From the IMG/VR virus record IMGVR_UViG_3300046718_000268: 62,400 nt of DNA. The stretch is one strand, 5' to 3'. This DNA is from a virus. Positions 26,401 to 43,738 of this stretch are shown here, piece after piece (the first letter of the stretch is position 1; each line of letters begins with the position of its first letter). Both the position numbers and the translations under genes were made by a program. The notes below the pieces were generated by a model. That model saw nothing but the letters and a program-made list of their open reading frames with translations, searched no databases and was not told where the DNA came from.

Positions 26401-27188
26401 TCGTTGGCGGCGCGTATGGTCAATCCAAGGCAGTCGGCACGTATAATCTGTATTGCCCGGGAACTGCATTCAATCTTGTATTTGGTCCTTTCGGCGTCGG
26501 GTCTGCAAATCTGAGTGGCTACAGCTTCCGGTCCAATCTCGACATGACTGGCGGTGGAACAGTCTTCACTCGTGCCATCGCGGCGTCGGGTACTATCCAA
26601 TCGGATATCACTGGCACAGCAGCGTATTTTGAAGCCGCTCTGGGAACCGCTGCCGCTGCGTTCACAGTTGGATCGATCTACGCCTATCAAGCCTACATCA
26701 GAGTTGGCGGAATCGGTGCCGGTTCGTCGATTACGAACCTCTTTGGGTTCTATGCCAATAGCACGATGGCTCCGGTGAGTGGAGTCACCAACAGCTATGC
26801 CTTCTATGGCCAGTATCCCGTCCAGGCGAACACCTACAACCTCTATATGGCAGGGACCGCCTTCAACTATCTCGGCGGACCTCTTGGTCTCGGTACAACT
26901 GTTCTGACTGGTTATGCTTTTCGTAATACACTTGCTGGAGCGAATTCTTTCACAGGCGATCTAACAATCTATGCTGCGACGGTAGTACCAGCTGGCGGAT
27001 CGATTGGAGTCGGATATAAAATCAGCTCGACAACTAATCTAGGTTGGTTTGTTGGTTCTGGTCCGCCGACTTTAAGCGCTGCTAAAGGATCTGTCTATAG
27101 CAATACGACGGCAATCACAACAACGAGCCGTGTCTATGTCAATATCGATGGCGGAACGACATGGGCCAACTTTACGGCTTCGGCTTAG
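20439..27188 (+). CDS. giant tail fibre / tailspike (2249 aa) with pectate-lyase-like beta-helix segment
   Basis: Fibre-type N-terminus and LE/LD coiled repeats. FSPALQAAMDFAVANGFEGVYFPPRETPYLL resembles a Pectate_lyase_3 start. Repeated C-terminal modules (TYNLYCPGTAFNLVFGPFGVGSANLSGYSFRSNL / TYNLYMAGTAFNYLGGPLGLGTTVLTGYAFRNTL). Confidence 0.8.
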   Translation: MGTVATKGNTAWRDYETDGVPATGEHRPLKNEIRDFVAAVDAVGVGAGMGLLTFPTLAAMNAYTTAPANTTAQCLQDNNMYRWVSPTWTLIGPSPAAGLSTAQADIDDLQSRVGTIEPIVATHTTEIAALTTQVDANTALLANHEEAITEIWTETDNTADSLQPILDANLDARVTVLEEVNSDVRLDSLESINAGPRLDALEDETGDDHRLDQVEHAVIALGQHVSTLDTQVQAGKDDDLFDPAISEIAVQWSSVVTGDPLNRPSIAASEFYVSSHNGTMIRIQGAAVRAPRAAYRLLNGHKYEILGAVRRANDPTDPLGDSVALRMAWLSSAKAQIAQQTLMTGSLTVSMGLQIYRVIVSLAAGDEVDIVAPASTVYMTPFMQTWGSDGTTDIMPYLRVTDLTSNTLISADTAGMNARISALEDIDAETRLTALEAAVDSNNLVNVLTYQGLEAGGDFSPALQAAMDFAVANGFEGVYFPPRETPYLLNDCDVPPNCKIFGHPQATLSPFGYAYTVFNLTGDNIEFAHLNCVGVGNFEQRHLDGTRGVGAIVYCQLEIVTPGSPPILGLQANADSTYDDLTIADWQPSTPYLGLDVNGDPQSLAKLQPSKTIWSALISHTSDPNSMINDIIAGIWIGTNYGLTLSGGGSNYRATDTEDPGDDPEGVGGPYFDYLVTEANSTTGIPGTGGKLRCYTDAAEGVSGSIIRVRVTAQGSGYRSNSLTDPNRIMRVGNAYPTTRWINGQNVDTVTFPPPINQDIRPFKNLILRDSSFLYGQLPLQAIYCTHLKVLRNYMGYLQGGGVNLIDCDDYTIQDNFIEECWGSQSNGIHVGSYSGDLRPRGVYRGVIAHNRVRRCIGGDGVGIHANSAMIASLVIDGNIMELCETGSTLKHGWNSNTYTPGTFDEFDVGYHGITYTGNVIRVDTGHRGVCFHNNMRDNYQFVVDDSNIIESIGGKVGLNGAVTTAMTVINCMNSVFRPVILGRFYVSIWVDGAYHCTFDPVTDGRSNVSIDVSYGRARPCHLCRFPGEYLANNVALQIYSATKPIFNGTRALVRGRPINSITIVNPGSGGPHNAVIPVYLHGGGNGLQVQCTVVNGVITKASYVASAQEMMFGVDYFDGGNGTVYIKVKQNGGSGAIIKVPMRMGQGLDPISTYFTASISGTNLVVSAITPYSVSAGVTTQTELEIGQYINGDGVAQGQVIQEQLSGPPGGIGTYRVKIPQTLASTPMKALLPFATQNEVVLDLVDASHAVVASAGSGYLNGGNTTADLPLLVEMGQDFVGTVTTDGIGAVISTTIIDAGGHFRDVPDFTFESGITWGSIPVLTAVLPTGNVQGLQLRNIYGGQIANSYFEGGINGAWLYGETVQGLDILSSEFKSDIGEPLLIDGTDHLGVMRGITLIYGDGVARTAVTVPQSGTAAFKSWSRGEDNLIQSTAVIKNIHGMTSSTTYRVAGSGSLTFDNRSIPATSKALTASVAAPAIPTLTADVMAPISRVGTQDHAIGAIVLHLNDVTNIAIGMWIAGTIFPGVPNGQRVGSIDAGLKTVTITASSPYVPGLVGPIPSGSTFYFHTARIPVSSTAGIVVGQRVTSAIAGLRIPTKVLAVGGALPAGVVELDGPLLYTMPSGTTVTFSNTTLTVASVTGVSAGQLASCAGLPTAIPSTTTVESVNIGANTITLNNGIAAAMPSTTVVAFAAISSNLYLKGQDTVVLNSTDDYATFLWNSTLGRAEFVGSNNDAFTSLNIDQGVTTDYNPILFATSTWNNASTIFFGIELDIIDQASDPTSRLMGFYVGPDEPGLTEVFAVHKNGSVSVGAGGSISVGIDVRKDITGAASAYGVFVRGEIQPDVTNLASCFTTQPTVAPGATFTSFTHFYAFQGLISQDANVQNQYGVLVAANLIDASVLNVGLSSALPIGSPGAVTVNITAMSYSGGTVTATTASPHGVLVGQLFRVDGSVAATIPAGYNGNHVATAGTTGSTLKWAAAADPGAIVGGAYGQSKAVGTYNLYCPGTAFNLVFGPFGVGSANLSGYSFRSNLDMTGGGTVFTRAIAASGTIQSDITGTAAYFEAALGTAAAAFTVGSIYAYQAYIRVGGIGAGSSITNLFGFYANSTMAPVSGVTNSYAFYGQYPVQANTYNLYMAGTAFNYLGGPLGLGTTVLTGYAFRNTLAGANSFTGDLTIYAATVVPAGGSIGVGYKISSTTNLGWFVGSGPPTLSAAKGSVYSNTTAITTTSRVYVNIDGGTTWANFTASA

Positions 27189-27527: not shown

Positions 27528-27985
27528 AAATGAACATTAAAATCACTCTTGGAATGGCGATGTCTGCTGTCGTTCCGCTTAATAAACTAGCAACAATGGA
27601 AATGCCGGCAATACAGGCATTTTTCTTGACTAAACGGGCAGTGTGGTTATCAGAAGAACATGCTGTCTTTATTCAGGTACAGAATTCTCTTGTCAAACGT
27701 TATGGAATAGAAGATTCTGAACATCCGGGCAATTATAAAATCGAACCAACTATGCCTGGTTGGCAATTTTATGTTGAACAGATGAACGCAGTTCTAAGTG
27801 AGGAAATTGAATTTCCGTTCGATCCACTTCCAATTAGTGAATGGAAATTTAATCTAACGCCGCAAGATATTTTTACTCTTGGATTTATTTTCGACGGTGG
27901 TGTTGAACCTTTGTCGGATGAAACTCGTGCTCGACGTACGCGATTGCAACGACTGGCAGAGACTGGAAGTCGAACGCTACAATAG
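27515..27985 (+). CDS. hypothetical protein (start 27515 or 27530)
   Basis: Last + strand ORF of the structural arm; its 3' end overlaps the convergent polymerase gene by 9 nt. Confidence 0.45.
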   Translation: MEFIEMNIKITLGMAMSAVVPLNKLATMEMPAIQAFFLTKRAVWLSEEHAVFIQVQNSLVKRYGIEDSEHPGNYKIEPTMPGWQFYVEQMNAVLSEEIEFPFDPLPISEWKFNLTPQDIFTLGFIFDGGVEPLSDETRARRTRLQRLAETGSRTLQ

Positions 27986-29986
27986 TTCGGCACCAATCTT
28001 ACGTAGAATTTTCTTGCTTTCGGCAAGATAAACATCATAATCGATATCTTCAGGAAATGATTCAGGCAGGAGAAGTGCGGGCTTGCCTCCGGTCGATTTA
28101 CCGATCATATGTCCGTTTGAAGCGCGTATAATCTCCTTGCCTCGTTCTTCAATGCTATAGTACCAGCGCACAGATCGACCTAAATATTCGCCGTCCTTGA
28201 CAGCTCCATCTTTAACGGATTGAATTCGAATAAACTTACGAATATCTTTACATTTCCAAATAGTCTGCTCGAGCGGAATGCCTTCTTTTAGATAAGCTTC
28301 GACTGCGGCAATGCAAATTGTAGTTACAGGATTCTTATGAAGCTTTTTCTCAGTAGGCTCCTTCGGATCGTCCCATGGATTTGCATATGCTCCTTTACGC
28401 TTTACTTCGCCTTTTTCATCGATTGCGATATAGTTATTGATATCACGAGAGAATATGGAACGATAGTTTTTGCTCTCCGTTTGGAAACCTGTCTCATATT
28501 CCCACCATTTTGTAATTTGATTCAAGGTTGCCAATAAAGGTCGAGGACATTTAACCATCACACCATCTGTATTCGCACTAACCACAGTGATGCCTGACAT
28601 TTCAAGAGCCTCAATTAACATCAATAGAAATAGTTGTCCTCCAATTGTTACATGAAACATGCTTTTTGGCGAATACATAATTGACCAAAGATTAGCAAGT
28701 TTGCCGAATGTTCCGTTAACCACAATCTTAAGAGATTCGGCAACTGCCTTCAATCCGGCTGCTTTAGCTTTTAGTCGACGTTCTGTAATTGCTCCAAAGA
28801 TTTGTAGAAATATCGGTCCAAGATGATCTGGATAATAATTATTCAGTAGCATCAATCGCGGATAATAGGATGCAACATCTTTATCGACAAGTTGATAGTT
28901 AGCATCCGAATGATGCGCGGAGGATTTTTCTTTACTATGCAGACCGCCGATACCAAATCGATACGATGCATCCCCAATATTAATCTCTAATGCTTTGATT
29001 TGAGGAGATAGTTCGATATAACCATCTTCGCCTACTACGAACGGTGCCTGTTTAATTATTTCGAGCACTGAATTCATTAGCGGTGTTTGAAATTGAAGCG
29101 AATATGGCTTCTCGTAATAATAGACTGTTCCAGAATCGATTATAGGACGTCGAGCATGTCTATTAGTTAATCGTCTATATTCGGCACCTATAATTTGTTC
29201 TGCAATTTGTGCATCAGACTTGCTACGTAAATCAATATTATTCTCATTCGAAATCTGATAACGAAGTTCAATTTGTTCTTTCAAGCATTGATAAAGAAAT
29301 GCTGTCGATGTTGTGTCATTGACGCAATACCAGCGAACAATTGCCATCTGTTCTGGTGATAGCACAGTGTTCGGATGAAATGGCAAATCTTGCATTCGTG
29401 GAACATGCAAGCGACCGCCGTAGGTTTTCAAACTGGCAAATAGCGGCGCGACTTCAAACAAGTCAATGTGGTTAACAGCAAACGGCTTTATCTTATGACG
29501 TCTAAGAATATCGCTAGCTCTAAACTTGTGAATAATAATGTCGTCTGCGGCTTCTTTTAGAATGTCAACTTCGCAACCTTCAAGTGCCATAGATGTAATC
29601 GGTATGTCAAAATTAATACCGTTGAAAGTTACAATCGTAAAATTATTCAAAATCCATTCGAACTTGGCGTTATTGTAAGTGAACGATCGATCCAGATCTT
29701 CTTCAAAGACTACAACTTTTCCTGTAGCGAAAGAGCGGAAGATAGCAAGGAAATAATTTGGGAAAATTTCGATATCGTACATAAGATGATCATCTGCTGT
29801 AAGTGCGACAGCAAGGTCATGATTAGTCATAATCTCAACAGGAAACCGTTGAGCTTCTTCAAGATTTGGAAGATAACCCGGTTCTAACCACACTGGCTTC
29901 GGTGCTACTCGTTTCGGTCTAACGAGTGATTTCTTCTTGATCTTTGGAAGGTCTTTCCAGAAGAAGCCAATTGCATCCGGGCGCAT
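27977..29986 (-). CDS. family B DNA polymerase with 3'-5' exonuclease
   Basis: Exo I YDIEIF, Exo II NGINFDIPI, Exo III YCVNDTTS. Pol motif A DVASYYPRLML (DxxSLYPS-like), motif B KIVVNGTFGKL (KxxxNSxYG-like), motif C ANTDGV (DTDS-like). Confidence 0.85.
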   Translation of the reverse strand: MRPDAIGFFWKDLPKIKKKSLVRPKRVAPKPVWLEPGYLPNLEEAQRFPVEIMTNHDLAVALTADDHLMYDIEIFPNYFLAIFRSFATGKVVVFEEDLDRSFTYNNAKFEWILNNFTIVTFNGINFDIPITSMALEGCEVDILKEAADDIIIHKFRASDILRRHKIKPFAVNHIDLFEVAPLFASLKTYGGRLHVPRMQDLPFHPNTVLSPEQMAIVRWYCVNDTTSTAFLYQCLKEQIELRYQISNENNIDLRSKSDAQIAEQIIGAEYRRLTNRHARRPIIDSGTVYYYEKPYSLQFQTPLMNSVLEIIKQAPFVVGEDGYIELSPQIKALEINIGDASYRFGIGGLHSKEKSSAHHSDANYQLVDKDVASYYPRLMLLNNYYPDHLGPIFLQIFGAITERRLKAKAAGLKAVAESLKIVVNGTFGKLANLWSIMYSPKSMFHVTIGGQLFLLMLIEALEMSGITVVSANTDGVMVKCPRPLLATLNQITKWWEYETGFQTESKNYRSIFSRDINNYIAIDEKGEVKRKGAYANPWDDPKEPTEKKLHKNPVTTICIAAVEAYLKEGIPLEQTIWKCKDIRKFIRIQSVKDGAVKDGEYLGRSVRWYYSIEERGKEIIRASNGHMIGKSTGGKPALLLPESFPEDIDYDVYLAESKKILRKIGAELL

Positions 29987-29989
29987 GGT

Positions 29990-30172
29990 TTAACCCAATC
30001 GTGTGATGGCCTTCGTCTTACCGTACATCAGAGACGCGATAACGCGACGGATATTTAGAAGGAGTGTCCTATCCTTCTTTGCTCGAGCTGTTGCTTTGTC
30101 TATGACCTTAAGAGTGAGTTCAAGCTCATGCGTTGTCAGCCTCGCGTTCCTCATTTGATATCCACCTTCCAA
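29990..30172 (-). CDS. small hypothetical protein (start probably internal)
   Basis: ORF only. Confidence 0.3.
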   Translation of the reverse strand: MEGGYQMRNARLTTHELELTLKVIDKATARAKKDRTLLLNIRRVIASLMYGKTKAITRLG

Positions 30173-31121
30173 TGATTGCTCCGCGGAGATTATCTCCGAA
30201 GAACATGCAAGCTGCTGGATATAATGACAGATCGATACTGTGCATCGTACCTTTTAACAGCTCTAACATTGGCAAAGCGTAGCAGCCTTTATGTTGGAAG
30301 TCCAGTAACTCATAACTAGCGGCGCTTCCTTCATCGTCGTGGCTAGTCCATATCGCACCATTACGAAAATAAACTTCATTCTGCTTGTTGACGAATGGTT
30401 TGATGCTTTGTAAAGCATGAAAGAAATTCTCGGCAATAGGCTTAGGATTAGAGTCGGCTTCTAATATCTTCTTAAAGATCGAAACTTGTTCTTTCTCATA
30501 AAGTCCTGAACGAATCCATCTTCCATCAGCATAATGGAACGTGATTGAATTTTCTGTCAGTTGTGCATGAGTTGGTTCATCTTGAATTCGAATGATCTCG
30601 TCAACAGCATCATGTGGAAGATTAATTGTGAACGGCAATTGAGTACCTATCCAATACTCAACTAGACAGACGTTGTTTGTCGCAAAGCAACTTTTATCGG
30701 ATAGAAGAACTCCATTGGCCCATAGACGAGATGCATCATTACCGATAAATGGTTCAACTGCCATCAACGCTTGTCGAATTGGCGTGCCAGTGAAATGAAC
30801 AAATTCGCCTGCTGGATGGACATGAGGAGTTTCCTCATCAATACATTCAATTGTTGTTTTATACGGTCCATTGAGAATTCGAAGTTTACCATTCGGCAAC
30901 AATGACAAAGTCATCGGATATTCTTCACTGCAATGAGCGATAGCTTGAACAAGCTCTCTAGCCTTCGGCTTGCAGTCGATATCTAATGCGATTGGTGAAC
31001 ATAGACCAAGAGATCCATTATAAGCTCGAATTGTACCTTTTTCAATACAGAAATGCTTCATTGAAGGAACTAGATCTTTCTTTGCGACTGCACCTTGAAC
31101 GAAACGTAGTTCTCTGAGCAT
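30126..31121 (-). CDS. sliding-clamp-like protein (DnaN-like, putative)
   Basis: 331 aa, N-terminus MLRELRFVQGAVAKKDLVPSMKHF resembles phage beta-clamp-like proteins as recalled; adjacent to the polymerase. Confidence 0.45.
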   Translation of the reverse strand: MLRELRFVQGAVAKKDLVPSMKHFCIEKGTIRAYNGSLGLCSPIALDIDCKPKARELVQAIAHCSEEYPMTLSLLPNGKLRILNGPYKTTIECIDEETPHVHPAGEFVHFTGTPIRQALMAVEPFIGNDASRLWANGVLLSDKSCFATNNVCLVEYWIGTQLPFTINLPHDAVDEIIRIQDEPTHAQLTENSITFHYADGRWIRSGLYEKEQVSIFKKILEADSNPKPIAENFFHALQSIKPFVNKQNEVYFRNGAIWTSHDDEGSAASYELLDFQHKGCYALPMLELLKGTMHSIDLSLYPAACMFFGDNLRGAIIGRWISNEEREADNA

Positions 31122-31154: not shown

Positions 31155-32084
31155 TTAGAAAAGCTCTTGAATCCGAACCTTAAACTTTTCGGATTGACTG
31201 GCATTGATCATCGAGTTAATCACGCCGAAAGACCAGAGGTTGTAGGCGGCTCTCGATTCATAGACTGTCGATAGACGATCGTATGTGAATCCTTGAAGCT
31301 CAAGTTGACGGAGAACATAATCTTGTTCAATCGGCGTCAATGTAGAGACATGCTGTCCCTTATCATGTCGAGCTGGAGACTTTTCAGAGACATTGATAGG
31401 TCCATGTAGAGGATTGACAATCGTACCGAATGCAGCGCTCTGAATCCAGGACGATGAATCACATGAATACCATGGATATCGTTCCATAAGTGGAACAGAT
31501 GTGATTCCGAAGCCATGAACCTTCAACTTAGGTCTGCCGGCACCGTCGATCAGATATTTATTCCATACCCGATCTAACCACACCATCAACTGTTGTGTCG
31601 AAGAACCTACCATGCCGCCTAATGTGATATAGGGATAGTTAGCGACGTAATATTCGAGATATCTTTCATCTTCTCCAGCATGGAAGCATGGCAACGGACG
31701 GAATCCACGATATTCCATTTCGAGCTGATTTCGATAAGTTTGAAGTGGGTCTCCGATGCCGTCAAGCACGGACGCCATGACAATTCCGTCAGAATCGTGT
31801 CTAAGGATATCTGTGTTCTTTTTGATGTACCCAACGTATTCCTCCACTGAGAGATTTACGCCAAGAGTGTATGCCGAAAAGGCACCACTATCAAGAAAGA
31901 TCTGAGCTTTGTTAGCACGCATTTCATCGACAAATTTTTGCTTGCCGACGTAATGCCACGATTCCAGAATATGTGGAAGTTCCCATAAGACCCAACGCTC
32001 TCGATCGTTAAGCTTCTCCCATCTAGCCTGGCCGTGCATGTATCCATTCGAATATACAGCCGCAGTATAGATGTTCATCTTCAT
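31155..32084 (-). CDS. dpdA: DpdA-like DNA-guanine transglycosylase (TGT superfamily)
   Basis: IFLDSGAFS motif typical of DpdA as recalled; about 310 aa; sits in the preQ0-synthesis cluster. Confidence 0.75.
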   Translation of the reverse strand: MKMNIYTAAVYSNGYMHGQARWEKLNDRERWVLWELPHILESWHYVGKQKFVDEMRANKAQIFLDSGAFSAYTLGVNLSVEEYVGYIKKNTDILRHDSDGIVMASVLDGIGDPLQTYRNQLEMEYRGFRPLPCFHAGEDERYLEYYVANYPYITLGGMVGSSTQQLMVWLDRVWNKYLIDGAGRPKLKVHGFGITSVPLMERYPWYSCDSSSWIQSAAFGTIVNPLHGPINVSEKSPARHDKGQHVSTLTPIEQDYVLRQLELQGFTYDRLSTVYESRAAYNLWSFGVINSMINASQSEKFKVRIQELF

Positions 32085-32605
32085 GGGCGATCTTTCTCAT
32101 CGACTAAACCCATGGCTAAAGCTGCTTGAGCACGAGGCGTATTCCAATCAACTGTGACATCTTTGATGATCCATTTCTTCTCATCATTGACGCTAGGAGG
32201 AACTAACAACTTCGCGCGAACACTGTCATAGTTGAGTTTCGCAATAATCTTATTCTTATTAAGTAAATAGCGAAGCTTTGGATCTTCATGAGCATCAGGA
32301 AACTTAGGGTCAATCCAGATCACCATAACCACAAGCGTATGTCTCACGCCGTCATTATCCATGGTAACAGTATCGGATTCTGGATGGATAACATAATGAG
32401 ACTGATCTGGTCGCTTAAGACCTTTTGCCTCATCCATCACTAGCCAGCCACAGTCCCAAAAACGACAGGAGATAGGACGATTTATGTAAATCGAACATCC
32501 AACTCCTTCTTCTTGAAAGCCACATTTATGCCCAGCCTTCTTTCCAATCTCTTCGACTGGAACAAGCTCACAGCACAGTTGACAATCTCCGCATTCCTTT
32601 TTCAT
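32081..32605 (-). CDS. YkgJ-type CxxCxxCC zinc/iron-chelating domain protein
   Basis: N-terminal CGDCQLCCE plus additional Cys (HKCG, GCS, SCRFWDCGW); 4-nt overlap with dpdA. Confidence 0.6.
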   Translation of the reverse strand: MKKECGDCQLCCELVPVEEIGKKAGHKCGFQEEGVGCSIYINRPISCRFWDCGWLVMDEAKGLKRPDQSHYVIHPESDTVTMDNDGVRHTLVVMVIWIDPKFPDAHEDPKLRYLLNKNKIIAKLNYDSVRAKLLVPPSVNDEKKWIIKDVTVDWNTPRAQAALAMGLVDEKDRP

Positions 32606-32629: not shown

Positions 32630-32704
32630 TTAACGTGCAAGCATTAAAAATTCATCACGAGCTTCGCGTTCATCTTTCATAACACCGCGTAGCGCTGACG
32701 TTAT
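32630..32704 (-). pseudogene. orphan duplicate of the folE 3' end (24 codons + stop) left downstream of the HNH gene
   Basis: - strand translation ITSALRGVMKDEREARDEFLMLAR*. The first 22 residues match the extant FolE C-terminus exactly, but 15 of the 22 codons differ synonymously. Confidence 0.75.
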
Positions 32705-33081
32705 CATCTTGGGCCTTTCCAATTCGGATTAGCTGGTCCAAATAGACGAGGTCTGACTCCTCTACCGCGGCGTTCTCTATCCTTCATATTTTTATCAGGA
32801 TCATCCAAATAAAAGCATTCCTTCTTAATACATGCTGGTTTATCACAATGATGCAAAACTTGGCAATGTTCTGGGTCTTCTTCAGGAGTTGGAATAGGAC
32901 CGATATAATGTTCATAACTTGCGCGATGAGCAAATCTAAACCATGGAATATTATCAACTGTTCCGCGCATTCTGCCATATCCATCTCGATCCTTCGCGCC
33001 AGTCCAAATATGACAACCGTCCTCATCAATTTGATACTTTTTGAGTTTTTCGCTCATTGGTTTTGAGGATCCTGCTCTCAT
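32704..33081 (-). mobile_element. HNH homing endonuclease gene inserted at the folE 3' end
   Basis: CHIWTGAKDRDGYGRM...FAHRASYEHYIGPIP...VLHHCDKPACIKKEC is an HNH_3-type signature; flanked by duplicated folE 3' ends. Confidence 0.8.
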
Positions 33082-33632
33082 TTTGAAAGCATCAAGAATT
33101 CGTCTCGGGCCTCTCGTTCATCCTTCATGACACCTCTTAAGGCGCTGGTAATCGTGTGATGACCTTGTTGACAGACACCTCTGCTCTCCATACATAGGTG
33201 GCGTGCGCGTACCAGAACGCCTACGCCGATCGGATTTAGTACGCTATGCATGGCATCTGCGATCTGATTAGTGAACCGCTCTTGAACTTGCAAACGTCGT
33301 GCGTACACATCTGATACAAGACGGGAGATTTTGCTGAGTCCGACGATTCGACCATTCGGTATGTAGCCGACGGTGGCGGTCCCGAAGAACGGTGCCATAT
33401 GATGCTCGCAATGACTGTAGAATGGTATGTCTTTTACGAGGATCATTTCGTCGACCGTCTCCGCGCCATCTTCGAAACATTTAAGAATATTCTCCGGACT
33501 GAGTTTATAGCCTGATGTAAAGAACTGCCACGCCTTAGCGACACGATACGGTGTTTCCTCCAATCCTTGACGTTGTGGATCTGGAGTAAGAATTGTCAAC
33601 ATATCATGAATAATAGCTTTGAGAGATTCCAT
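33078..33632 (-). CDS. folE: GTP cyclohydrolase I
   Basis: ETPYRVAKAW, FYSHCEHHMAPF, RLQVQERFTNQIADA motifs; start taken at MESLKAI (GGAG RBS, 2 nt after the queD stop). Confidence 0.9.
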   Translation of the reverse strand: MESLKAIIHDMLTILTPDPQRQGLEETPYRVAKAWQFFTSGYKLSPENILKCFEDGAETVDEMILVKDIPFYSHCEHHMAPFFGTATVGYIPNGRIVGLSKISRLVSDVYARRLQVQERFTNQIADAMHSVLNPIGVGVLVRARHLCMESRGVCQQGHHTITSALRGVMKDEREARDEFLMLSK

Positions 33633-33634
33633 TA

Positions 33635-34012
33635 TTAGAACTCCGGATTGCGTTTTGATATCGCCCAACAGTTCTTTGTCTCCCAGACTTGAACGCTTTC
33701 GCATATGACATTCTGAGATAGCGCACTAGCAATGCGCTCTCGAAACCAGTATGCGATAAATTCTGCTGTCGGATTTTCCAATCCTTCAATGTCGTTAAGC
33801 ATTCGATGATCACAGTAATCGATAAGCGGCAAGACTATGCGATCCAGATCGAAGAAATCTAGAATAAAACCTGTCTCCTGTATCGGTCCAGAAAGAACAA
33901 CTTCGATTTCATAGTTATGACCGTGAGGACGCTTGCACTTGTGGTTATCGGCGACATTTGGTAGCCAATGACCAGCGATGAGTTCATAACGATTTCCAAT
34001 TGTCGTTGTCAT
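33635..34012 (-). CDS. queD: 6-carboxy-5,6,7,8-tetrahydropterin synthase
   Basis: CKRPHGHNYEIEVV and CDHRMLND motifs; 125 aa. Confidence 0.9.
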   Translation of the reverse strand: MTTTIGNRYELIAGHWLPNVADNHKCKRPHGHNYEIEVVLSGPIQETGFILDFFDLDRIVLPLIDYCDHRMLNDIEGLENPTAEFIAYWFRERIASALSQNVICESVQVWETKNCWAISKRNPEF

Positions 34013-34965
34013 AGCGTTGTCCTCAAAACGAGGTTAAGAAGACTTAGATTCGCTTCACTTGTCAGACAATCGTCGATATCCGACAATTCAACGTATTTCG
34101 GATAATGTTCGTCAGCTGGATCAGCTCCAACTAATACAGCCGGCGGATAAACAAAGCCTCTGATAGCGCTAAATGTATTGCCACCTTCTCGAAGATAGAT
34201 GACAATCTTCTCATAACGCTTGCCGTAGGTGTCTCTCCATTCTCTATATCGGCGTTTGAGCGCTGCAATATGATATTCACGAACTTGTGGGTCGCAAAGA
34301 GTTCCATCCCAGTCGTAAGCATTAAAAGGATAGGTCATTTCGGCAAGTGCAGGAATAATACCCGCATTCGAAATATGGATATAATCCAATTCATTGAGCA
34401 CGCCAAGCTCATAGAGCTTCTTCCGAATAGTCGTATGGATGAAGCTCTTACTGTACGGTTTAGCATGCGAACAAATTGTCAAGAACGCAATCTTTCGACT
34501 TGAGTGATCTTCCCAAGCCTTCTTCCAATGCTCCTCGAACATGTCGACTTGCATGCGACCTACGCCTTGATAGAATAGCTTGGGGCTATGACTTGAGAAT
34601 CCTGTCTCTCGGATTATCGGTAAAGTATTAGTATTGTTCGAAATGAATTTGAAGATACTGTCGCTATTACCTTCCCAACGAATGGCATCGTCTCCAATAT
34701 AATAATCGAAGGAAGCTTTGCCGCTTTCGGTCGGATAAGGCGATTCGTTGATATGGTTAACAAACGATATAAGATTGTTATCGGTCAACCATTTTCTAAC
34801 CACATACTCGGGTCTTGTCGTCCAGACGCAAGTTGTGTGCCGAGCACGAAAAAGCATCTTGAGCAAACGAACTGCACGAAGGTCAGGTTCGCCTATTGCT
34901 TCTCCACTATCCCATTTAACAAATCGGGCGAGTGTTCCATCGAGGTCGAGACCGATGACTGACAT
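34009..34965 (-). CDS. fusion protein: N-terminal HAD-like phosphatase fold + C-terminal ArcS-signature (DUF5591-like) domain
   Basis: N-terminus GLDLDGTLA (HAD motif I). C-terminal ICSHAKPYSKSFIH fits the ArcS signature PC-X3-KPY-X2-S-X2-H as recalled. Confidence 0.6.
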   Translation of the reverse strand: MSVIGLDLDGTLARFVKWDSGEAIGEPDLRAVRLLKMLFRARHTTCVWTTRPEYVVRKWLTDNNLISFVNHINESPYPTESGKASFDYYIGDDAIRWEGNSDSIFKFISNNTNTLPIIRETGFSSHSPKLFYQGVGRMQVDMFEEHWKKAWEDHSSRKIAFLTICSHAKPYSKSFIHTTIRKKLYELGVLNELDYIHISNAGIIPALAEMTYPFNAYDWDGTLCDPQVREYHIAALKRRYREWRDTYGKRYEKIVIYLREGGNTFSAIRGFVYPPAVLVGADPADEHYPKYVELSDIDDCLTSEANLSLLNLVLRTTL

Positions 34966-35987
34966 GCAACATTCTCCGCGATTTGTAGAACTTGAGTGAA
35001 TCTGTCAAGCTCTTCCGATGTAGTAACGAACGACGGGCCAACCCTAATATACGGCTTATGCCACGAGATTACAAGCCTATAATGTTCGAACACTTTTCGA
35101 AATTTGTCGTAATTGCCGTCGACTAATTTAAAGCCGAATGCGCCTAGACCATAGAAGCCAAGATCTTGTAGGCGTCGTTGAATATAATTGACACGAAACC
35201 CAAGTTCAATCTCCTCCTGAATTAAGTGAGATAGAACTCGAAGGCCAATGGTTGAGGTGAGGTTGTTGCCACCGCAAGTTGTGTTTAACCCTGTGGGCGG
35301 CACCGTGCGAATCGCTTTGTAGTGGCCCCCTAGCAGCGCTAACGGTGCGCCTTGTGCTATACCCTTACCGGCAATTACCATGTCTGCACTGCGGTTCATA
35401 AATCGAACACCGCAACGCATGAAGCTAGTAATCATTTCGTCGGCTACGAGAGTTGCGCCATATATATCGCACATTTCACGAAGTCGTCTTTCGTCCGGCA
35501 TATGCCCAGACCAGCCCTGAATCGGCTCATAAAAAAGCATGTCGAAGGATGGTACATGATTGGCATTTGGGTCGATTGTAATAAGCTCGATTGGATTACC
35601 CCAAGGCACATCATATCGAGCGCAAGACATCGATATAGACTTACCATGGAACGAGTTTTGAAGAACTGCAACTTTCGGCAGTCTTTTAATTGCAGTGGCA
35701 GTGATTTGGATGGCACGTTCGACTGCTTCGGCTCCAGTGTTGACTAGCAACCATTCGAAACGTGAATCGTAATGATGAAGAAGTTCACATAGCAGTCTTG
35801 CATTTTCCGCAGGACGATCGTAAGTGTTAATGAGACCAGACATAATAACATCGTTTAGTGCGTCATCTACAACTTTCGAACCATGTCCGAGAGACACATT
35901 CAAAATACCGCTGAGCATATCCAACCATTTAAGATTGAACTTGTCGACGATAACATTTCCGTGTGCTGATTTCATCATTTTCTGCAC
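34893..35987 (-). CDS. class-III (PLP-dependent) aminotransferase
   Basis: NTGAEAVERAIQI, FHGKS, ADEMITSFMRCG, ADMVIAGKGIAQGAPL (candidate PLP-lysine) motifs; overlaps both neighbouring genes. Confidence 0.8.
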   Translation of the reverse strand: MQKMMKSAHGNVIVDKFNLKWLDMLSGILNVSLGHGSKVVDDALNDVIMSGLINTYDRPAENARLLCELLHHYDSRFEWLLVNTGAEAVERAIQITATAIKRLPKVAVLQNSFHGKSISMSCARYDVPWGNPIELITIDPNANHVPSFDMLFYEPIQGWSGHMPDERRLREMCDIYGATLVADEMITSFMRCGVRFMNRSADMVIAGKGIAQGAPLALLGGHYKAIRTVPPTGLNTTCGGNNLTSTIGLRVLSHLIQEEIELGFRVNYIQRRLQDLGFYGLGAFGFKLVDGNYDKFRKVFEHYRLVISWHKPYIRVGPSFVTTSEELDRFTQVLQIAENVACQSSVSTSMEHSPDLLNGIVEKQ

Positions 35988-36736
35988 TCATCATAATTGG
36001 TGGTTTTTGGAAGTTCCATCAATCCTTCGCTCCATGCTCTAACCACAAGTGGATCCGGCAGTCCAGCTTTTTCAAAACCGTCTGCTCGGAGCACGTTAGC
36101 GTGATTCATGTCGGTAGGCGGATATTTGCCGTCATACGACGTATGCGTATAGGCTAGAGCTTCCCAACATCCAGGAAGCCCTTTTGCCATTCGAACCGTA
36201 TCAGCTTTAGACAGGTCCATGAGCGGTGTATGAATTCGGATAGGACGAGTACCTCGATGATCATGACCCAACGCGGCATTGATATAATCTTGTGTGCGTC
36301 GGATAAATTCATAACGGCAATCGTCATAGTTGGCATTATCCATCTGACAGACGCCGATGACAATGCTACTGATTCCCCATGCCTCAGCGCGGTTCGCAGC
36401 TATGGTGAGGAACAATGCATTACGCATCGGAACAAACGTCAATTCTCTGCGATCGCCGATGGTCTTTTCCATCTGCTCTGCGTTTTCGTAACGCTCGAGA
36501 GACTGCGACGAATCAACTAATGGTGATTTACTGATTAATTCAGCAGTGTGAATTAAACTCCAAGTCTTAACTTTCGCCATTGCTGTAACTTCTTCAGCTG
36601 CACGAATTTCACGAATATGGGTCTGCCCATAATCGAAAGTAATAGCATGAACTTCTTCGAACATGAACTTAGCCCAGAAGAGGCATGTCGTCGAATCCTG
36701 TCCACCGGAGAGAATTACGAGAGCTTTACTTGACAT
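35975..36736 (-). CDS. queC: 7-cyano-7-deazaguanine synthase-like (QueC family), C-terminal Zn-Cys cluster apparently absent
   Basis: ALVILSGGQDSTTCL PP-loop. The C-terminal SYDGKYPPTDMNHANVLRADGF occupies the place of the usual C..C..C..C motif. Confidence 0.8.
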   Translation of the reverse strand: MSSKALVILSGGQDSTTCLFWAKFMFEEVHAITFDYGQTHIREIRAAEEVTAMAKVKTWSLIHTAELISKSPLVDSSQSLERYENAEQMEKTIGDRRELTFVPMRNALFLTIAANRAEAWGISSIVIGVCQMDNANYDDCRYEFIRRTQDYINAALGHDHRGTRPIRIHTPLMDLSKADTVRMAKGLPGCWEALAYTHTSYDGKYPPTDMNHANVLRADGFEKAGLPDPLVVRAWSEGLMELPKTTNYDECRK

Positions 36737-36899
36737 TGTCCCTCTCTTTAATCATTCGAAGTTTAAGGTCATACAAATATACACGGATTAGTTGGGCATC
36801 AGCAAGCGTTAATTTTTGCAGAGCAGTGATGTCATTACCTTTAACGATTTCTTCAAAGATCCGAAGCAAATCATTAATTGGTGTAAGATTGTTCGGCAT
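36726..36899 (-). CDS. small hypothetical protein (57 aa)
   Basis: Hand translation MPNNLTPINDLLRIFEEIVKGNDITALQKLTLADAQLIRVYLYDLKLRMIKERDNVK; coupled to both neighbours. Confidence 0.35.
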   Translation of the reverse strand: MPNNLTPINDLLRIFEEIVKGNDITALQKLTLADAQLIRVYLYDLKLRMIKERDNVK

Positions 36900-37234
36900 T
36901 AAAAGACTCCGTCACCTGGAACTGCACCTTCAATATCTAAAGATATTGATGTTTTATATTCTTCTATTTTTAGAAATTCACGATGTGCGTCTTTCGGTTT
37001 AACTCCATCGCGAACAATACAAGTATGAAAATCAATAAACATCATAGCAATCTTACCTTCTCTAGAGAGAGAACGTCTTGGAACGTAGCACATTCCTCCT
37101 GAGAATAAAAAGCGTTGATCCCAATAGATATTATTGCCAAGTTCGGCAACTTGAATTAATCCAGGCAAGTGTTTTTGTGAAAGTGGATTTCTTGGATTCC
37201 ACATGACGATATAATTATTAACTGTAATAGTCAT
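36899..37234 (-). CDS. hypothetical protein (111 aa) inside the deazaguanine cluster
   Basis: ORF abutting the queE stop; no motif recognised. Confidence 0.5.
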   Translation of the reverse strand: MTITVNNYIVMWNPRNPLSQKHLPGLIQVAELGNNIYWDQRFLFSGGMCYVPRRSLSREGKIAMMFIDFHTCIVRDGVKPKDAHREFLKIEEYKTSISLDIEGAVPGDGVF

Positions 37235-38002
37235 TTAGTCGACTCCAATAATCTTATGAAGTTGCAGACCAAGAATGTAGCCGTACCTTAGACAGGAGGC
37301 TTTGCATGCTTCGAGCGAAGCTTCATTGCGAGCCAAGTCATCAGGGTTATCGCCAATGCCATGGTCCATGGGCTCAAGGTAAATCGGGACACGGTCCCTT
37401 TCGTATAGTGGAGTGACATATTTTGGTCTGGCAACGACTGACTTGACATTGTGGTTAAGGACTTTGATGGGGAGCCCGTCGATTTTGCTAACGGAGTCAT
37501 AGGACATCACGTATTTGAAGCAACATGCAACTTCGTGAAAGATTGGATGTACACGTCCAGTTTTAGGACTGCAGACAATGTATATACCATCACGCTTTCC
37601 GAGATCTTGTTCATATTCAAAATCTTTCGGAGGCTGTATTGTACCGTTTGTTTCGATTTGAACCCAATAAAGCAATCGACGTAGACGTTTCAAAAGTGGT
37701 TCGAGATTTTGTCGAAAAGGTTCGCCGCCAGTTATGACGATAAGTGGGCTGATGACATTATAACCACAAGCGTCATTGACGCTCGTAGTAATATCGACAA
37801 TTGTCATATATCGACGTTGGCTAGTATAGTCCGTATCACATCCGGGGCATTGAAGATTGCAGCCGGCAAGGCGGATAAAGACTGCCGGCGTACCAGCAAA
37901 CGGACCTTCGCCTTGTATCGTGTAGAAAATAGATTGAATTTCTAGGTCGCCATTCGGATGTGCTTCTCGCTTCTCGATTGGCTGTTGGTTTAACATAGTC
38001 AC
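37235..38002 (-). CDS. queE: 7-carboxy-7-deazaguanine synthase (radical SAM)
   Basis: TIQGEGPFAGTPAVFIRLAGCNLQCPGCDT (Cx14CxxC QueE-type cluster). Confidence 0.85.
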   Translation of the reverse strand: MTMLNQQPIEKREAHPNGDLEIQSIFYTIQGEGPFAGTPAVFIRLAGCNLQCPGCDTDYTSQRRYMTIVDITTSVNDACGYNVISPLIVITGGEPFRQNLEPLLKRLRRLLYWVQIETNGTIQPPKDFEYEQDLGKRDGIYIVCSPKTGRVHPIFHEVACCFKYVMSYDSVSKIDGLPIKVLNHNVKSVVARPKYVTPLYERDRVPIYLEPMDHGIGDNPDDLARNEASLEACKASCLRYGYILGLQLHKIIGVD

Positions 38003-38159
38003 TCCCGAGTTTCCTAGCGATGCTAGGGGTTGCGGAGTAGTGGGGCGAGGACAGACCTTTGGTATCTGAAGGAAACCAACATCCGAAACCTCGCCCCGTC
38101 CCAGAATGGTTCACTCCAGGACTTGATGGCCGGGTAAGCTCTTATTAGCCGCCTGCCGA

Positions 38160-38195
38160 CGAAACAACCCGGCATCACGGAGCAAATGCCGGGTT
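38160..38195 (-). terminator. hairpin terminator candidate after gene 38214..38810
   Basis: 10-bp stem AACCCGGCAT/ATGCCGGGTT (38166-38175 / 38186-38195), then GTTTCG on the - strand (weak U tract). Confidence 0.4.
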
Positions 38196-38213
38196 GAATC
38201 GAGCAGCTAGGTC

Positions 38214-38810
38214 TTACGACTGCGGCTGCTCGGAAGCAACCGGAGCCGTGGGGGCGGCGACCGGCGCTGCGGCGACCGGAACGGGCGCGGGCTTCGGCGC
38301 CTCGATCCGACCGCTGATGCCGTGGAACTTCCGCCAGCGAGCGTACTCGGCGCGCACGTTGGCATCGTTCAGACCGCGCGAACGGCTGATTTCCATCGAC
38401 TCCTTGATGGAAGCCGGCTGTCCGTTGCGGGTCGAGACCTCGTCGAACACGTCCCAAGCCTGGGCGCAGAGGCCACCCGGCTTCGGTCGACGGACCTCGT
38501 TCTGCTCCGGCATCTTGTTCGCCTCCTTGGCGGCGAGCATCGCGGCCTTCTGGTCGGCCTTCTCCTTCTCCTTCGCCTGCTTCTCGGCAGCACGAGCGGC
38601 TTCCTTCGCCTGCTTCTCGGCGACCTTGGCCGCCTGCTTGGCGACCTTCTCCGCCTCGCGCTTGGCAGCGGCTTCGGCCTTCGCAGCTTCCTTCGCAGCA
38701 GCGGCAGCAGCCTGAGCGGCAGCGACCGCGGCAGGATCGATGACCGGCGTCGGCGTCGGGGTCGGGGTCGGATTCGGAACAGGCATCGCATTCGGGTCGG
38801 TGGTATCCAT
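38214..38810 (-). CDS. Ala/Lys/Pro-repeat protein with conserved C-terminal WRK..GISG domain (paralog of 54926..55540)
   Basis: Start at MDTTDPN (AAGGAG RBS); PTPTPTPTP and AAKEAAKAEAAAK repeats; C-terminal GGLCAQAWDVF...RAEYARWRKFHGISGR. Confidence 0.6.
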   Translation of the reverse strand: MDTTDPNAMPVPNPTPTPTPTPVIDPAAVAAAQAAAAAAKEAAKAEAAAKREAEKVAKQAAKVAEKQAKEAARAAEKQAKEKEKADQKAAMLAAKEANKMPEQNEVRRPKPGGLCAQAWDVFDEVSTRNGQPASIKESMEISRSRGLNDANVRAEYARWRKFHGISGRIEAPKPAPVPVAAAPVAAPTAPVASEQPQS

Positions 38811-38857
38811 TTTCAGTCTCCTTCTTTGAGTTAGGGAACCATGCGGTTCGTGCAGTA

Positions 38858-38886
38858 TAAATAGCATGTCAGGGCGGACCTTGCAA
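38858..38886 (-). promoter_or_regulatory. promoter-like TTGCAA-N17-TATTTA (- strand) for 38214..38810
   Basis: - strand reads CTTGCAAGGTccgccctgacatgcTATTTA; shares TTGCAAGGT with the early promoters. Confidence 0.45.
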
Positions 38887-38889
38887 GCA

Positions 38890-39480
38890 TTATTTCTTGA
38901 TAGGGCGCATTTTCTGCCAGTTACCAAGTTCGCAGGAGCAAGTCGAACGATTTACTCCCTCTTTCTCAAGGATCTTCATCCACTCCTTGCGGAGCTTAAG
39001 AACAACCTTGATATCGGTCGGGCTACCAGCGGCGGCCCAGAGCTCATCAGCACGTTGCCAAATCAGATCGCGCGTACCAGCCTGACGGGGCGCACGAGAC
39101 ATCAACTGTGCCGGAATTGATGGGTCGGTAGGTGATGTGATATATCCACCGACTAGAACGACAGTTTGCTCTCCGATTGTAGCCATCTTCTTAACCGGAT
39201 GAGCTTCGAAATCATGCTCTCCAAGGAATTCTGGGAAGTTCTCATAGATTGCAATGCTGCGAGCATTGCCGTCCTGGCTGATATTCACCTGAACTTCGAA
39301 ATTCTCGTTATCGCAGAAGATTGGCCGACGTTCCTTGCGGCGAACATCCGATACGCTCTTGATCGGCGCCCACACGCGCGGCGCATCAATCCAATCTGGA
39401 ATCGGCAAACGGATCAATTGTCCGTTCTTATCGAATTTGCGCTTATCCAGAAAGACGGGAATCTTCAGATCGTCTTGCAT
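38890..39480 (-). CDS. hypothetical protein (196 aa); C-terminus distantly like the WRK-domain family
   Basis: ORF; C-terminal ...RSTCSCELGNWQKMRPI. Confidence 0.55.
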   Translation of the reverse strand: MQDDLKIPVFLDKRKFDKNGQLIRLPIPDWIDAPRVWAPIKSVSDVRRKERRPIFCDNENFEVQVNISQDGNARSIAIYENFPEFLGEHDFEAHPVKKMATIGEQTVVLVGGYITSPTDPSIPAQLMSRAPRQAGTRDLIWQRADELWAAAGSPTDIKVVLKLRKEWMKILEKEGVNRSTCSCELGNWQKMRPIKK

Positions 39481-42142: not shown

Positions 42143-42300
42143 GATGTTCTTTCCATAGAGAAATCGATGGAGCGCGCTCGGGATCAAACCGGGACACCTC
42201 TGCTATCGGCCAACTAGATCCTACCCGCCCTTGTCGGGTCAACGGACCAAGAGTTCAAGATACCTCTCCTAGCCTAGTGGCTCCATCGACTCACCTCAGA

Positions 42301-43011: not shown

Positions 43012-43021
43012 CAGGTTCTCC

Positions 43022-43738
43022 TTATGATAGGGCTTTAGTTATTACACTTCCAAGATGGGGATACTCAATCGCTTCCAACTTGCCACTGCGGTCTTTTGCT
43101 TCATGTTGAATGTCTGCAGAGGTTTGAAGATAGCGATACTCCTTACCCTGCCCGTCCTTATTGAGCCCGAGTCGAAACACGAAGTCAAAGAAGTAAGGCA
43201 GTTTAGGTCCAAGTTTCGCACCTGGCATCGACGGACCATACTTTACGACACCAGACATTTCGTCTTTCATTGGTTCCATCTTCGCGGCCATATAGACATG
43301 CTTTCCTGGCATATCTCGATAGACACGAATAACGGATTCCATTTTCTCGATAAGCTCTCCGTACGCTTGACGCGGATCCTTCACCTGTCGTTTTGCATTG
43401 TTTAGAACAGTTTCGGCAATCTCAGAAAGACTGTCAATCGCTACCGATTGAAACATGCGCGCTTCCGCGCTACGAGTTAAGAACTGATATGCATCGTTAA
43501 GATCTTCAACCGTCCGAATCAAAATCATCGGTAGAGGGTAGGTGAACGGCTGACTTCCATAGATGCGACGAAGGTTTGCCTCCGATAGAGACAACGCGCC
43601 TGATTCTGCGCTCAACATAACCACATTGGGCATGGTTGAACAGAGAACGGTCTTGCCCATTCCTGATCCACCGTACACTAGGATTTTAACCCCATTGTTG
43701 GCGTTTTCGTGAGCTGATGTTGTAAATTGGAGTGCCAT
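43022..43738 (-). CDS. Sak4-like RecA-family ATPase (AAA_24)
   Basis: KILVYGGSGMGKT Walker A; size and pairing with the DUF669 gene. Confidence 0.7.
   Translation of the reverse strand: MALQFTTSAHENANNGVKILVYGGSGMGKTVLCSTMPNVVMLSAESGALSLSEANLRRIYGSQPFTYPLPMILIRTVEDLNDAYQFLTRSAEARMFQSVAIDSLSEIAETVLNNAKRQVKDPRQAYGELIEKMESVIRVYRDMPGKHVYMAAKMEPMKDEMSGVVKYGPSMPGAKLGPKLPYFFDFVFRLGLNKDGQGKEYRYLQTSADIQHEAKDRSGKLEAIEYPHLGSVITKALS

Follow-up and report, generated by a model that had tools for sequence, protein, structure and literature searches.

Eight 7-deazaguanine derivatives are known in phage DNA, which they shield from restriction enzymes. Gat-QueC and QueF-L, two synthases of archaeosine (G+) other than ArcS, are used by phages such as 9g. 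Stand-alone ArcS core proteins were reported in viruses in 2019 (PMC6884629) and named ArcS2 in 2023 (PMC10516641); those of Vibrio phage nt-1 (R9TEI9 / VPFG_00169) and Sulfolobus virus STSV2 have been described, and the nt-1 protein was tested in vivo (PMC10516641, PMC6884629). Here we describe a relative of these proteins encoded by the virus record IMGVR_UViG_3300046718_000268, a stretch of 62,400 nucleotides that we call the window. The protein joins a predicted HAD-type phosphatase domain to an ArcS core domain (DUF5591), and its gene lies directly downstream of a gene for a compact aminotransferase. As a tentative explanation, we propose that aminotransferase, ArcS core and phosphatase act one after the other in the modification of phage DNA.

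When the nt-1 ArcS2 was combined with DpdA2 in E. coli, 2'-deoxyarchaeosine (dG+) was obtained (PMC10516641). The nucleoside of 7-cyano-7-deazaguanine (preQ0) in DNA, dPreQ0, fell from 926 to 0 per 10^6 nucleotides, and only 4 dG+ were found (PMC10516641 Table 3). Since dPreQ0 vanished while dG+ stayed at 4, this suggests that ArcS2 enzymes mainly make a product outside those monitored in the nt-1 experiment. In the archaeal pathway, ArcS attaches lysine to preQ0; G+ arises when RaSEA cleaves this adduct (PMC11298593). For the enzyme of Thermococcus kodakarensis, the free preQ0 base is no substrate, the nucleoside is the minimum, and a 5'-phosphate accelerates the reaction (PMC11298593).

The window protein resembles the ArcS2 proteins of nt-1 and STSV2 in having a DUF5591 core free of tRNA-guanine transglycosylase (TGT)-like and PUA domains, in being viral, and in being encoded beside DpdA and preQ0 genes. 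Unlike nt-1 ArcS2, which is a single-domain protein of 226 residues, the core here comes with a dedicated aminotransferase and is fused to a HAD domain, which makes the protein a fused derivative instead of the single-domain form. With archaeal ArcS it shares the C-X3-KPY-X2-S-X2-H motif, a second block (S-x-A-G-I-I-P ... Y-D) and, presumably, the ATP-free addition of a primary amine to the preQ0 nitrile. It differs from archaeal ArcS in being without the TGT-like N-terminal domain, the C2 and PUA domains and a RaSEA partner, and in having Ile in place of the Pro of the signature. The target would also differ: archaeal ArcS serves G+15 of tRNA, whereas the fusion presumably acts on DNA. Gat-QueC and QueF-L, too, turn preQ0 into an amidine in DpdA clusters, but they are not homologous to the fusion.

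An ArcS core domain fused to a predicted HAD phosphatase

The fusion gene and its parts are the following.

34009..34965, minus strand: gene for the fusion of a HAD phosphatase and an ArcS core (DUF5591/ArcS2), 318 residues (open reading frame, translation, 53 full-length relatives, AlphaFold2 model)
34630..34965, minus strand: predicted capless (C0) HAD-type phosphatase domain, residues 1-112 (PHROG, PDB profile, NCBIfam, Foldseek, motif conservation)
34927..34953, minus strand: HAD motif I string GLDLDGTLA, residues 5-13 (D7, D9, T11 and L12 invariant in 53 sequences)
34012..34593, minus strand: ArcS core domain (DUF5591, 'ArcS2'-type), residues 125-318 (Pfam, NCBIfam, Foldseek, invariant residues)
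34435..34476, minus strand: ArcS signature ICSHAKPYSKSFIH, residues 164-177, that is, PC-X3-KPY-X2-S-X2-H with Ile for the leading Pro

Translation starts at the ATG at 34965-34963 (minus strand), with GGAGA 7 nt upstream of it, and the stop codon shares the sequence ATGA with the start of QueD, an overlap read from the sequence. A reading of 34009-34965 on the plus strand was ruled out, as that frame is full of stop codons. The first row of the family alignments omits Met1, and alignment numbers are one below the protein numbering used here.

The C-terminal half is a genuine ArcS core domain, because profile matches, fold matches and invariant signature residues all support the assignment. 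Pfam DUF5591 (PF17884) matched residues 141-222 with 35.3 bits against a gathering threshold of 26 (E 1.3e-8), covering profile positions 2-78 of 150; in relatives, coverage extends up to position 119. Two NCBIfam models named 'archaeosine synthase subunit alpha' also matched (E 3.8e-8 and 2.7e-6), and the ArcS equivalog NF040592 was not reached (32.4 bits vs a cut-off of 440). An AlphaFold2 model built on 53 family members had a mean predicted local distance difference test score (pLDDT) of 93.7 and a predicted template modelling score (pTM) of 0.85. When this model was compared with the PDB by Foldseek, only two structures matched at E <= 0.001: BT_0820 (2obb) on the N-terminal domain and AF0587 (2q07, E 8.8e-4) on the C-terminal domain. 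Among predicted viral structures, the best match of the C-terminal domain was the DUF5591 protein of Vibrio phage nt-1 (E 8.6e-9, about 21% identity). AF0587 carries PCTARKPYLTSRTH / LLLPCTARKPYLTSRTH, which is the published ArcS C1 signature, defined as PC-X3-KPY-X2-S-X2-H (PMC10516641). A sequence search of the PDB with the C-domain profile gave no match, and the link to AF0587 is made by fold and via an intermediate sequence only.

The signature of the fusion reads I-C165-SHA-K169-P170-Y171-SK-S174-FI-H177, and every position fits except the leading Pro, here Ile. C165, K169, P170, Y171, S174 and H177 are invariant in the 53 relatives. When archaeal-type stand-alone DUF5591 proteins, which carry the canonical PC-X3-KPY-X2-S-X2-H, were included in the alignment, C165, K169, P170, Y171, H177, A201-G202, Y217-D218, D296, D298 and L301 were also invariant.

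The N-terminal domain is predicted, from profiles, motifs and the model, to be a capless HAD-type phosphatase. A D-x-D arrangement is typical of HAD phosphatases, and here the four HAD motifs are D7-x-D9-x-T11 (I), W48-T49-T50-R51 (II), K83 (III) and D92-D93 (IV). D7-x-D9-x-T11, W48-[ST]-x-R51 and K83 are invariant in 53 sequences, with D92/D93 kept at 90% or more, and the corresponding positions of 2obb and of the separate HAD protein of a related locus, L022, hold the same residues. On its own, the DxDGT string carries no significance: the window's six-frame open reading frames hold three instances of the pattern, one of them a chance copy in the fusion protein itself (DWDGTL, residues 218-223). 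Profile searches matched PHROG 1238 (E 7.6e-13) and PHROG 415, a polynucleotide kinase family (E 4.5e-5), and the family profile matched 2obb in the PDB (E 3.5e-5) as well as 9iqw and 1xpj. The NCBIfam model 'BT0820 family HAD-type phosphatase' was found at E 8.5e-4, with 19.7 bits vs a cut-off of 165. By Foldseek, 2obb was matched with a probability of 1.0, a TM-score of 0.68 normalised to the target and a root-mean-square deviation of 3.6, and several models of phage 5'-nucleotidases and PNKP phosphatases matched among predicted viral structures. The modelled domain consists of just four strands and three helices, with no insertion that would form a cap. It thus resembles the BT_0820 family (2obb; NF046079), capless Rossmannoid HAD proteins of about 110-130 residues with DxDGT, W-[ST]-x-R, K and DD motifs; 2obb is the top PDB entry in both the profile and the fold comparison. 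Unlike BT_0820, a stand-alone protein, it is fused, and identity is 24%. The PDB entry 9iqw ('capsule biosynthesis protein', 134 residues) was considered as the Campylobacter jejuni protein Cj1435 and ruled out, since Cj1435 has a mass of 25.7 kDa.

These results bear on a first-pass annotation of the window, which had proposed an ArcS-like C-terminal half behind an N-terminal HAD-phosphatase-like module. Both assignments held, as did the absence of TGT-like and PUA domains, since the protein shows HAD and DUF5591 domains only. The structural comparison agreed on the C-terminal side through AF0587 and the nt-1 protein, and Pfam did so through DUF5591, although no Pfam HAD model matches this protein. 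The open reading frame exists as annotated, but its minus strand had been missed, and the motif I string was correctly seen but lies at residues 5-13 instead of 4-12.

A class-III aminotransferase gene co-varies with the HAD domain

The most informative feature, missed by the first-pass annotation, is the upstream gene for a class-III aminotransferase, which co-varies with the HAD domain.

34893..35987, minus strand: compact class-III, pyridoxal 5'-phosphate (PLP)-dependent aminotransferase, 364 residues (Pfam Aminotran_3, PF00202, E 6e-28, 98.1 bits vs 30.5)

The NCBIfam equivalogs ArgD, GabT, OAT, LysJ and HemL were not reached (best 79 bits vs cut-offs of 372-850). The protein belongs to a distinct phage clade, with phage matches to E 4e-59, followed by cellular ArgD-like proteins at 1e-16 and 26-29% identity. 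Invariant elements are TGAEA, FHGK, EPxQG, D183-E184, the PLP lysine K208 and the alpha-carboxylate arginine R315; compared with the acetylornithine aminotransferase of T. maritima, the arginine of the canonical FHGRT is an invariant lysine in the phage enzymes. Since K208, D183-E184 and R315 are all kept, the protein is predicted to be a working glutamate/2-oxoglutarate transaminase.

In every locus that could be checked (the window, L001/2, L003/4, L005, L006, L007, L012, L013, L014, L018, L019, L020, L021 and L024), the aminotransferase gene stands directly upstream of the fusion, and it abuts or overlaps the fusion wherever genes had been called. The overlap is 73 nt in the window (34893-34965) compared with 1-10 nt in the called loci L003-L007. 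It stems from a window-specific C-terminal extension of 24 residues found in no relative; the ancestral stop codon of the aminotransferase was probably lost in the window.

Loci of sister phages that share the gene order (L008/L009 and L015/L016) have a stand-alone DUF5591 gene between QueC and QueD and are without both aminotransferase and HAD. A split version is found in L022, where the aminotransferase, DUF5591 and a separate HAD homologue of 112 residues are three adjacent genes. This homologue scores 26 bits against the N-domain profile, has all motifs and weakly matches HAD_SAK_2, an RNA-repair domain. Across about 20 non-redundant loci, which are not phylogenetically independent, the two-by-two table of aminotransferase and HAD reads 15/1/0/4 (Fisher p = 0.001).

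Several loci show further neighbours. In L001/L002, the Synechococcus phages Yong-L2-223 and Ssp-JY38, a sugar-phosphate isomerase of the RpiB/LacAB type (8990-9433, Pfam 1e-39) lies directly downstream of the fusion, and the polymerase separates the trio of aminotransferase, fusion and RpiB from the Que genes. L023 (1488-3624) has, in this order, the aminotransferase, a thymidylate-kinase-like P-loop protein, a stand-alone DUF5591, a 113-residue protein, a YhhQ/Vut_1 transporter and QueC; the kinase occupies the place of the phosphatase in other loci. On L010 (6084-7954), a phage-like contig with ribonucleotide reductase, the row is GNAT acetyltransferase, QueC and stand-alone DUF5591. In L011 (2345-9666; cellular assembly GCA_040960625.1), a stand-alone DUF5591 gene adjoins a weak TGT-like gene, and its neighbours SIR2_2, nucleoside deoxyribosyltransferase, GIY-YIG and NurA look like a defence island.

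The fusion gene lies in a preQ0 and DpdA cluster

By its genes, the window is predicted to encode the full preQ0 pathway and a DNA transglycosylase. An operon-like row on the minus strand runs from PolA through the clamp-like gene, DpdA, the CxxCxxCC and HNH open reading frames, FolE, QueD, the fusion, the aminotransferase, QueC and the 111-residue frame to QueE.

27977-29986, minus strand: PolA
30126-31121, minus strand: clamp-like protein
31155..32084, minus strand: DpdA-type DNA guanine transglycosylase (phrog_887, 6.4e-88; weak NCBIfam DpdA match)
32081-32605, minus strand: 174-residue CxxCxxCC reading frame between DpdA and FolE, beginning CGDCQLCC
32704-33081, minus strand: small reading frame of 125 residues within the Que cluster (weak HNH_3 match, E 0.055)
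33078..33704, minus strand: FolE, GTP cyclohydrolase I (translation; syntenic Pfam GTP_cyclohydroI in relatives; phmmer)
33635..34012, minus strand: QueD, 6-carboxy-tetrahydropterin synthase (translation; the syntenic gene is Pfam PTPS in relatives)
35975..36736, minus strand: QueC, preQ0 synthase, 253 residues (NCBIfam TIGR00364, 162.6 bits vs a cut-off of 150.3)
36899-37234, minus strand: small reading frame of 111 residues without family, between QueC and QueE
37235..38002, minus strand: QueE, radical-SAM 7-carboxy-7-deazaguanine synthase (NCBIfam QueE models at about 1e-20; motif scan)

The order QueE, QueC, aminotransferase, HAD::DUF5591, QueD, FolE, DpdA, clamp, PolA is kept in the window and in L003-L007, L012-L014, L019, L020 and L024, with fusion proteins that are mutually only 32-76% identical, and the position of DpdA is kept in all related loci. 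The 174-residue frame at 32081-32605 is missing from most of them. Its cysteine motif recalls metal-binding proteins of the YkgJ/DpdM type, but its reading as a DpdM/YkgJ methylase was unsupported: it matched no Pfam or NCBIfam family, and its sole phage match was a hypothetical protein of Rhizobium phage RHph_Y1_11.

RpiB, QueF and RaSEA were searched for in the window and found to be absent. A motif scan of the window detected no QueF motif, and the radical-SAM motif CX3CX2C occurs in QueE alone among the real open reading frames; therefore, no RaSEA is encoded there. The QueC of the window matches TIGR00364 only and has no glutamine amidotransferase (Gat) domain.

A proposed relay and its alternatives

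Our data show which domains the protein has, that their catalytic residues are conserved, in which cluster the gene lies, and that aminotransferase, HAD and ArcS2 are linked. As an explanation of the fusion, we favour a relay from transaminase to ArcS2 to HAD within phage 7-deazaguanine DNA modification, although we hold this view tentatively and stop short of calling it probable. FolE, QueD, QueE and QueC would make preQ0, and DpdA would swap it for guanine in the phage DNA. With glutamate, the aminotransferase would produce a phosphorylated primary amine from a carbonyl metabolite that bears a phosphate, probably a sugar or triose phosphate. The ArcS2 domain would then attach this amine to the preQ0 nitrile at its carbon, most likely after preQ0 has entered the DNA, and so form an N-substituted amidine in the manner of archaeal ArcS with lysine. 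Finally, the capless HAD would strip the phosphate; it could act on the DNA-borne adduct or, immediately before coupling, on the amine. The end product may be an N-(hydroxyalkyl)-2'-deoxyarchaeosine-like base and not plain dG+, because no RaSEA-type enzyme is available to cut off the substituent. The relay appears the most economical reading of three facts: aminotransferase and HAD are gained and lost jointly, the HAD part is either joined to ArcS2 or encoded next to it, and RaSEA is missing. We infer the order of the steps, the identity of the amine, the use of DNA instead of the free base as substrate, and the final product.

Large substrates are typical of capless HADs, a point in favour of dephosphorylation of the DNA-borne adduct. 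The inactivity of ArcS on the free preQ0 base likewise favours action on DNA after DpdA (PMC11298593). A pentose phosphate may be the precursor, as hinted by the RpiB/LacAB gene that lies beside the fusion in the Synechococcus phages. A worked precedent for the order of steps may be seen, by analogy, in the serinol-amide pathway of C. jejuni, in which Cj1437 converts dihydroxyacetone phosphate to serinol phosphate, Cj1438C couples it, and the HAD protein Cj1435 dephosphorylates the coupled polymer (PMC11800397). The likeness, transamination followed by coupling and HAD dephosphorylation, is one of logic only: there, an ATP-dependent amide is formed on a polysaccharide carboxylate, whereas here an ATP-independent amidine is proposed on a DNA-borne nitrile. 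A more specific form of the relay is possible but, in our view, doubtful. In this form, a phage lineage with genomes of about 56-70 kb, the cultured Synechococcus phages included, would carry a 7-deazaguanine base not known before, an archaeosine with a hydroxyalkyl or polyol group on the amidine nitrogen. The group would come from a sugar or triose phosphate (e.g. ribose-5-phosphate, ribulose-5-phosphate, dihydroxyacetone phosphate or glyceraldehyde 3-phosphate) and would be built by the transaminase, ArcS2 and HAD relay, with the HAD acting on the DNA-borne adduct.

The first-pass annotation had viewed the protein as an amine-to-nitrile transferase acting on DNA-borne or free preQ0. Action in a DNA context is reasonable, given the place of the gene between QueC and QueD in a cluster that also encodes FolE, QueE and DpdA; free preQ0 is less likely to be the substrate, since the T. 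kodakarensis ArcS is inactive on the free base (PMC11298593). Its suggestion that a phosphorylated substrate is involved fits the data, while the ATP that it had foreseen for an assay is not required by known ArcS chemistry.

Several observations weigh against the relay. No Pfam HAD model matched the fusion protein, its isolated N-terminal domain at E up to 10 included, so that the HAD assignment depends on the profile matches, the fold and the motifs; relatives gave sub-threshold Pfam HAD matches only, and the domain reaches no curated family threshold in Pfam or NCBIfam. The isoelectric points are acidic to neutral (median 5.0 for the HAD domain and 6.8 for the C-domain), which does not look like a DNA-binding enzyme, although as a proxy for DNA binding this value is uninformative. 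The nearest relatives of the aminotransferase (ArgD, GabT, LysJ and OAT) work on amino-acid semialdehydes rather than on sugar phosphates. Only one branch has RpiB, and in L023, where aminotransferase and DUF5591 are present, no HAD is detectable within the 5-kb contig. No residues of the ArcS2 domain evidently separate aminotransferase-linked from aminotransferase-free forms; since P0075, which is without aminotransferase, has the identical TICSHAKPYSKS motif, the sequence gives no sign of an altered amine specificity.

A serious rival, which we still consider unlikely, is that ArcS2 makes plain dG+, with the aminotransferase and the HAD supplying or recycling the nitrogen donor (e.g. lysine, ornithine or a like donor made from a semialdehyde) or aiding release of the carbon skeleton. 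In its favour, the C-domain is structurally closest to the nt-1 ArcS2, and E. coli supplied with this protein and DpdA2 forms dG+; the dG+ yield, however, was tiny despite the loss of dPreQ0 (PMC10516641). Lysine is the donor of archaeal ArcS (PMC11298593), and the aminotransferase is closest to ArgD, LysJ, OAT and GabT, makers of omega-amino acids such as ornithine and lysine; however, host lysine and ornithine are abundant, and a dedicated phage transaminase would be superfluous. Plain dG+ also agrees with ArcS2 motifs that do not differ between loci with an aminotransferase and loci without one. On the other hand, the lysine adduct of archaeal ArcS becomes G+ only through RaSEA, the window has no gene resembling RaSEA, and the phosphatase would be left without an obvious role. 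It is distinctly unlikely that the aminotransferase works after coupling, ArcS2 attaching a host diamine or amino acid and the aminotransferase then transaminating the distal amine of the DNA adduct to an oxo or aldehyde group or, after elimination, to dG+, with the HAD separate. PLP enzymes reportedly act on DNA-borne adducts in the hypermodification of phage thymidine, and class-III enzymes of the ArgD/LysJ type, matched here by NCBIfam LysJ and ArgD, act on substrates whose other amine is blocked or tethered. The adjacency of aminotransferase and ArcS2 even where the HAD is separate or undetected (L022, L023) would also be explained, but not the joint gain and loss of HAD and aminotransferase, and the aminotransferase is not basic and has no nucleic-acid-binding feature that we could see.

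There is a slim chance that the HAD shares no substrate with the aminotransferase and is an independent module, resembling a nucleotidase or polynucleotide 3'-phosphatase, or a non-catalytic handle for phosphate or DNA that replaces the TGT-like and PUA domains. Its closest viral structural neighbours are annotated as 5'-nucleotidase and PNKP phosphatase; phrog_415 ('polynucleotide kinase') was matched, the L022 HAD weakly matches HAD_SAK_2, and the 5'-phosphate of the preQ0 nucleotide accelerates archaeal ArcS (PMC11298593). A pure binding role is, however, hard to reconcile with catalytic residues that are invariant or nearly so, including the general acid of the DxD motif, and neither form of this explanation accounts for the strict co-variation with the aminotransferase or for an acidic domain. 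We assign an almost negligible probability to the idea that the C-domain hydrates or hydrolyses the nitrile to 2'-deoxy-7-amido-7-deazaguanosine (dADG) or 2'-deoxy-7-carboxy-7-deazaguanosine (dCDG), with no amine transfer. STSV2, which has DpdA and ArcS2 only, carries dCDG, nt-1 DNA has dADG too, and an amidohydrolase option was raised by the authors for the ArcS homologues of both viruses (PMC10516641, PMC6884629). The same authors, however, later showed dG+ from nt-1 ArcS2 (PMC10516641); the full ArcS motif is kept, and an aminotransferase partner points to amine chemistry.

Distribution of the fusion and other features of the window

The 53 full-length relatives are 36-57% identical to the window protein. 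A search of 5.8 billion clusters returned 56, nearly all of them full length (about 315-346 residues), all unnamed or labelled 'hypothetical protein', and several on contigs of 56-70 kb. An exhaustive scan of 1.84 billion protein representatives found about 20 that match both domains at full length, nearly all on phage-like contigs. The sole cultured carriers are Yong-L2-223 and Ssp-JY38 (44% identity), whose host is Synechococcus sp. PCC 7002 and in which GenBank labels the fusion 'acid phosphatase' or 'hypothetical protein'. Among 185,579 species genomes there was one match, a phage-like contig of a metagenome-assembled genome. A megablast search with 20 kb around the fusion gene matched none of 50,697 phage records, and the tblastn matches were confined to the two Synechococcus phages and a single archaeal virus. 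Scanning collections of viruses, metagenomes and genomes for the pattern yielded just 5, 7 and 1 loci, respectively.

No description of a HAD::ArcS2 fusion was found in the searched literature, in which DUF5591 is named only in PMC10516641; that paper mentions neither a HAD fusion nor an aminotransferase partner, and 'phosphatase' occurs there as a reagent only. The first-pass annotation had considered the architecture undescribed. For the HAD fusion of the ArcS2 core this agrees with our searches; the fusion and its compact upstream aminotransferase are new, whereas the stand-alone ArcS core of phages had already been published as ArcS2.

The exhaustive scan also found fusions of a RaSEA-like radical-SAM domain with DUF5591 (TIGR01210 at 1e-29 to 1e-42, below cut-off), in which no TGT-like or PUA domain was detected. 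They comprise P0227, P0229-P0231, P0234, P0248 and P0298 (400-490 residues) as well as P0237 and P0245, with loci L025/L026. P0234 is archaeal, because it adjoins NMD3, eIF-1A and Rpr2, genes of archaeal translation and RNase P. Judged by its domains, such a protein would be ArcS and RaSEA in a single polypeptide. The fusion partner of the archaeal core domain, RaSEA, processes the ArcS adduct; in the phages the partner is a phosphatase instead.

Elsewhere in the window, 38023-38930 and 42277-43040 are of low complexity, rich in Pro, Ala, Gln and Arg, with long overlapping reading frames on both strands. Spurious CX3CX2C motifs fall in low-complexity or antisense frames of these stretches, in which the real genes are probably 38214-38927 and 42301-43011, both on the minus strand; in relatives, a DUF669 gene occupies the position of the latter. 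One reading frame of 2249 residues, at 20439-27188 (plus strand), lies in the genome's structural half. The window makes up nearly all of its source contig of 62,522 bp (P0103). The stretch 45124-52081 (minus strand) encodes RNase H, DUF7173, a weak MazG-like match, a UvrD-type helicase and an 800-residue primase/helicase-like protein (DUF3987, HBD of NrS-1 polymerase, AEP).

Implications for phage DNA modification

The module offers a genetic handle on which product ArcS2 makes in DNA. One ArcS core is found in three settings: alone, fused to RaSEA in archaea, and fused to a phosphatase with a private aminotransferase in phages. If the relay is true, it would mean a new DNA hypermodification and would add a new amine specificity to ArcS chemistry. 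In its more specific form, it would give an ArcS-type enzyme its first amine substrate other than lysine, and N-substituted archaeosine would for the first time be a stable constituent of a nucleic acid. If the relay holds, the enzyme would also be usable for the enzymatic, ATP-free labelling of preQ0-containing nucleic acids with functionalised amines. The cultured carriers Yong-L2-223 and Ssp-JY38 make the predicted base accessible to mass spectrometry. Our analysis suggests that phages with this module put an undescribed, larger modified guanine into their DNA.

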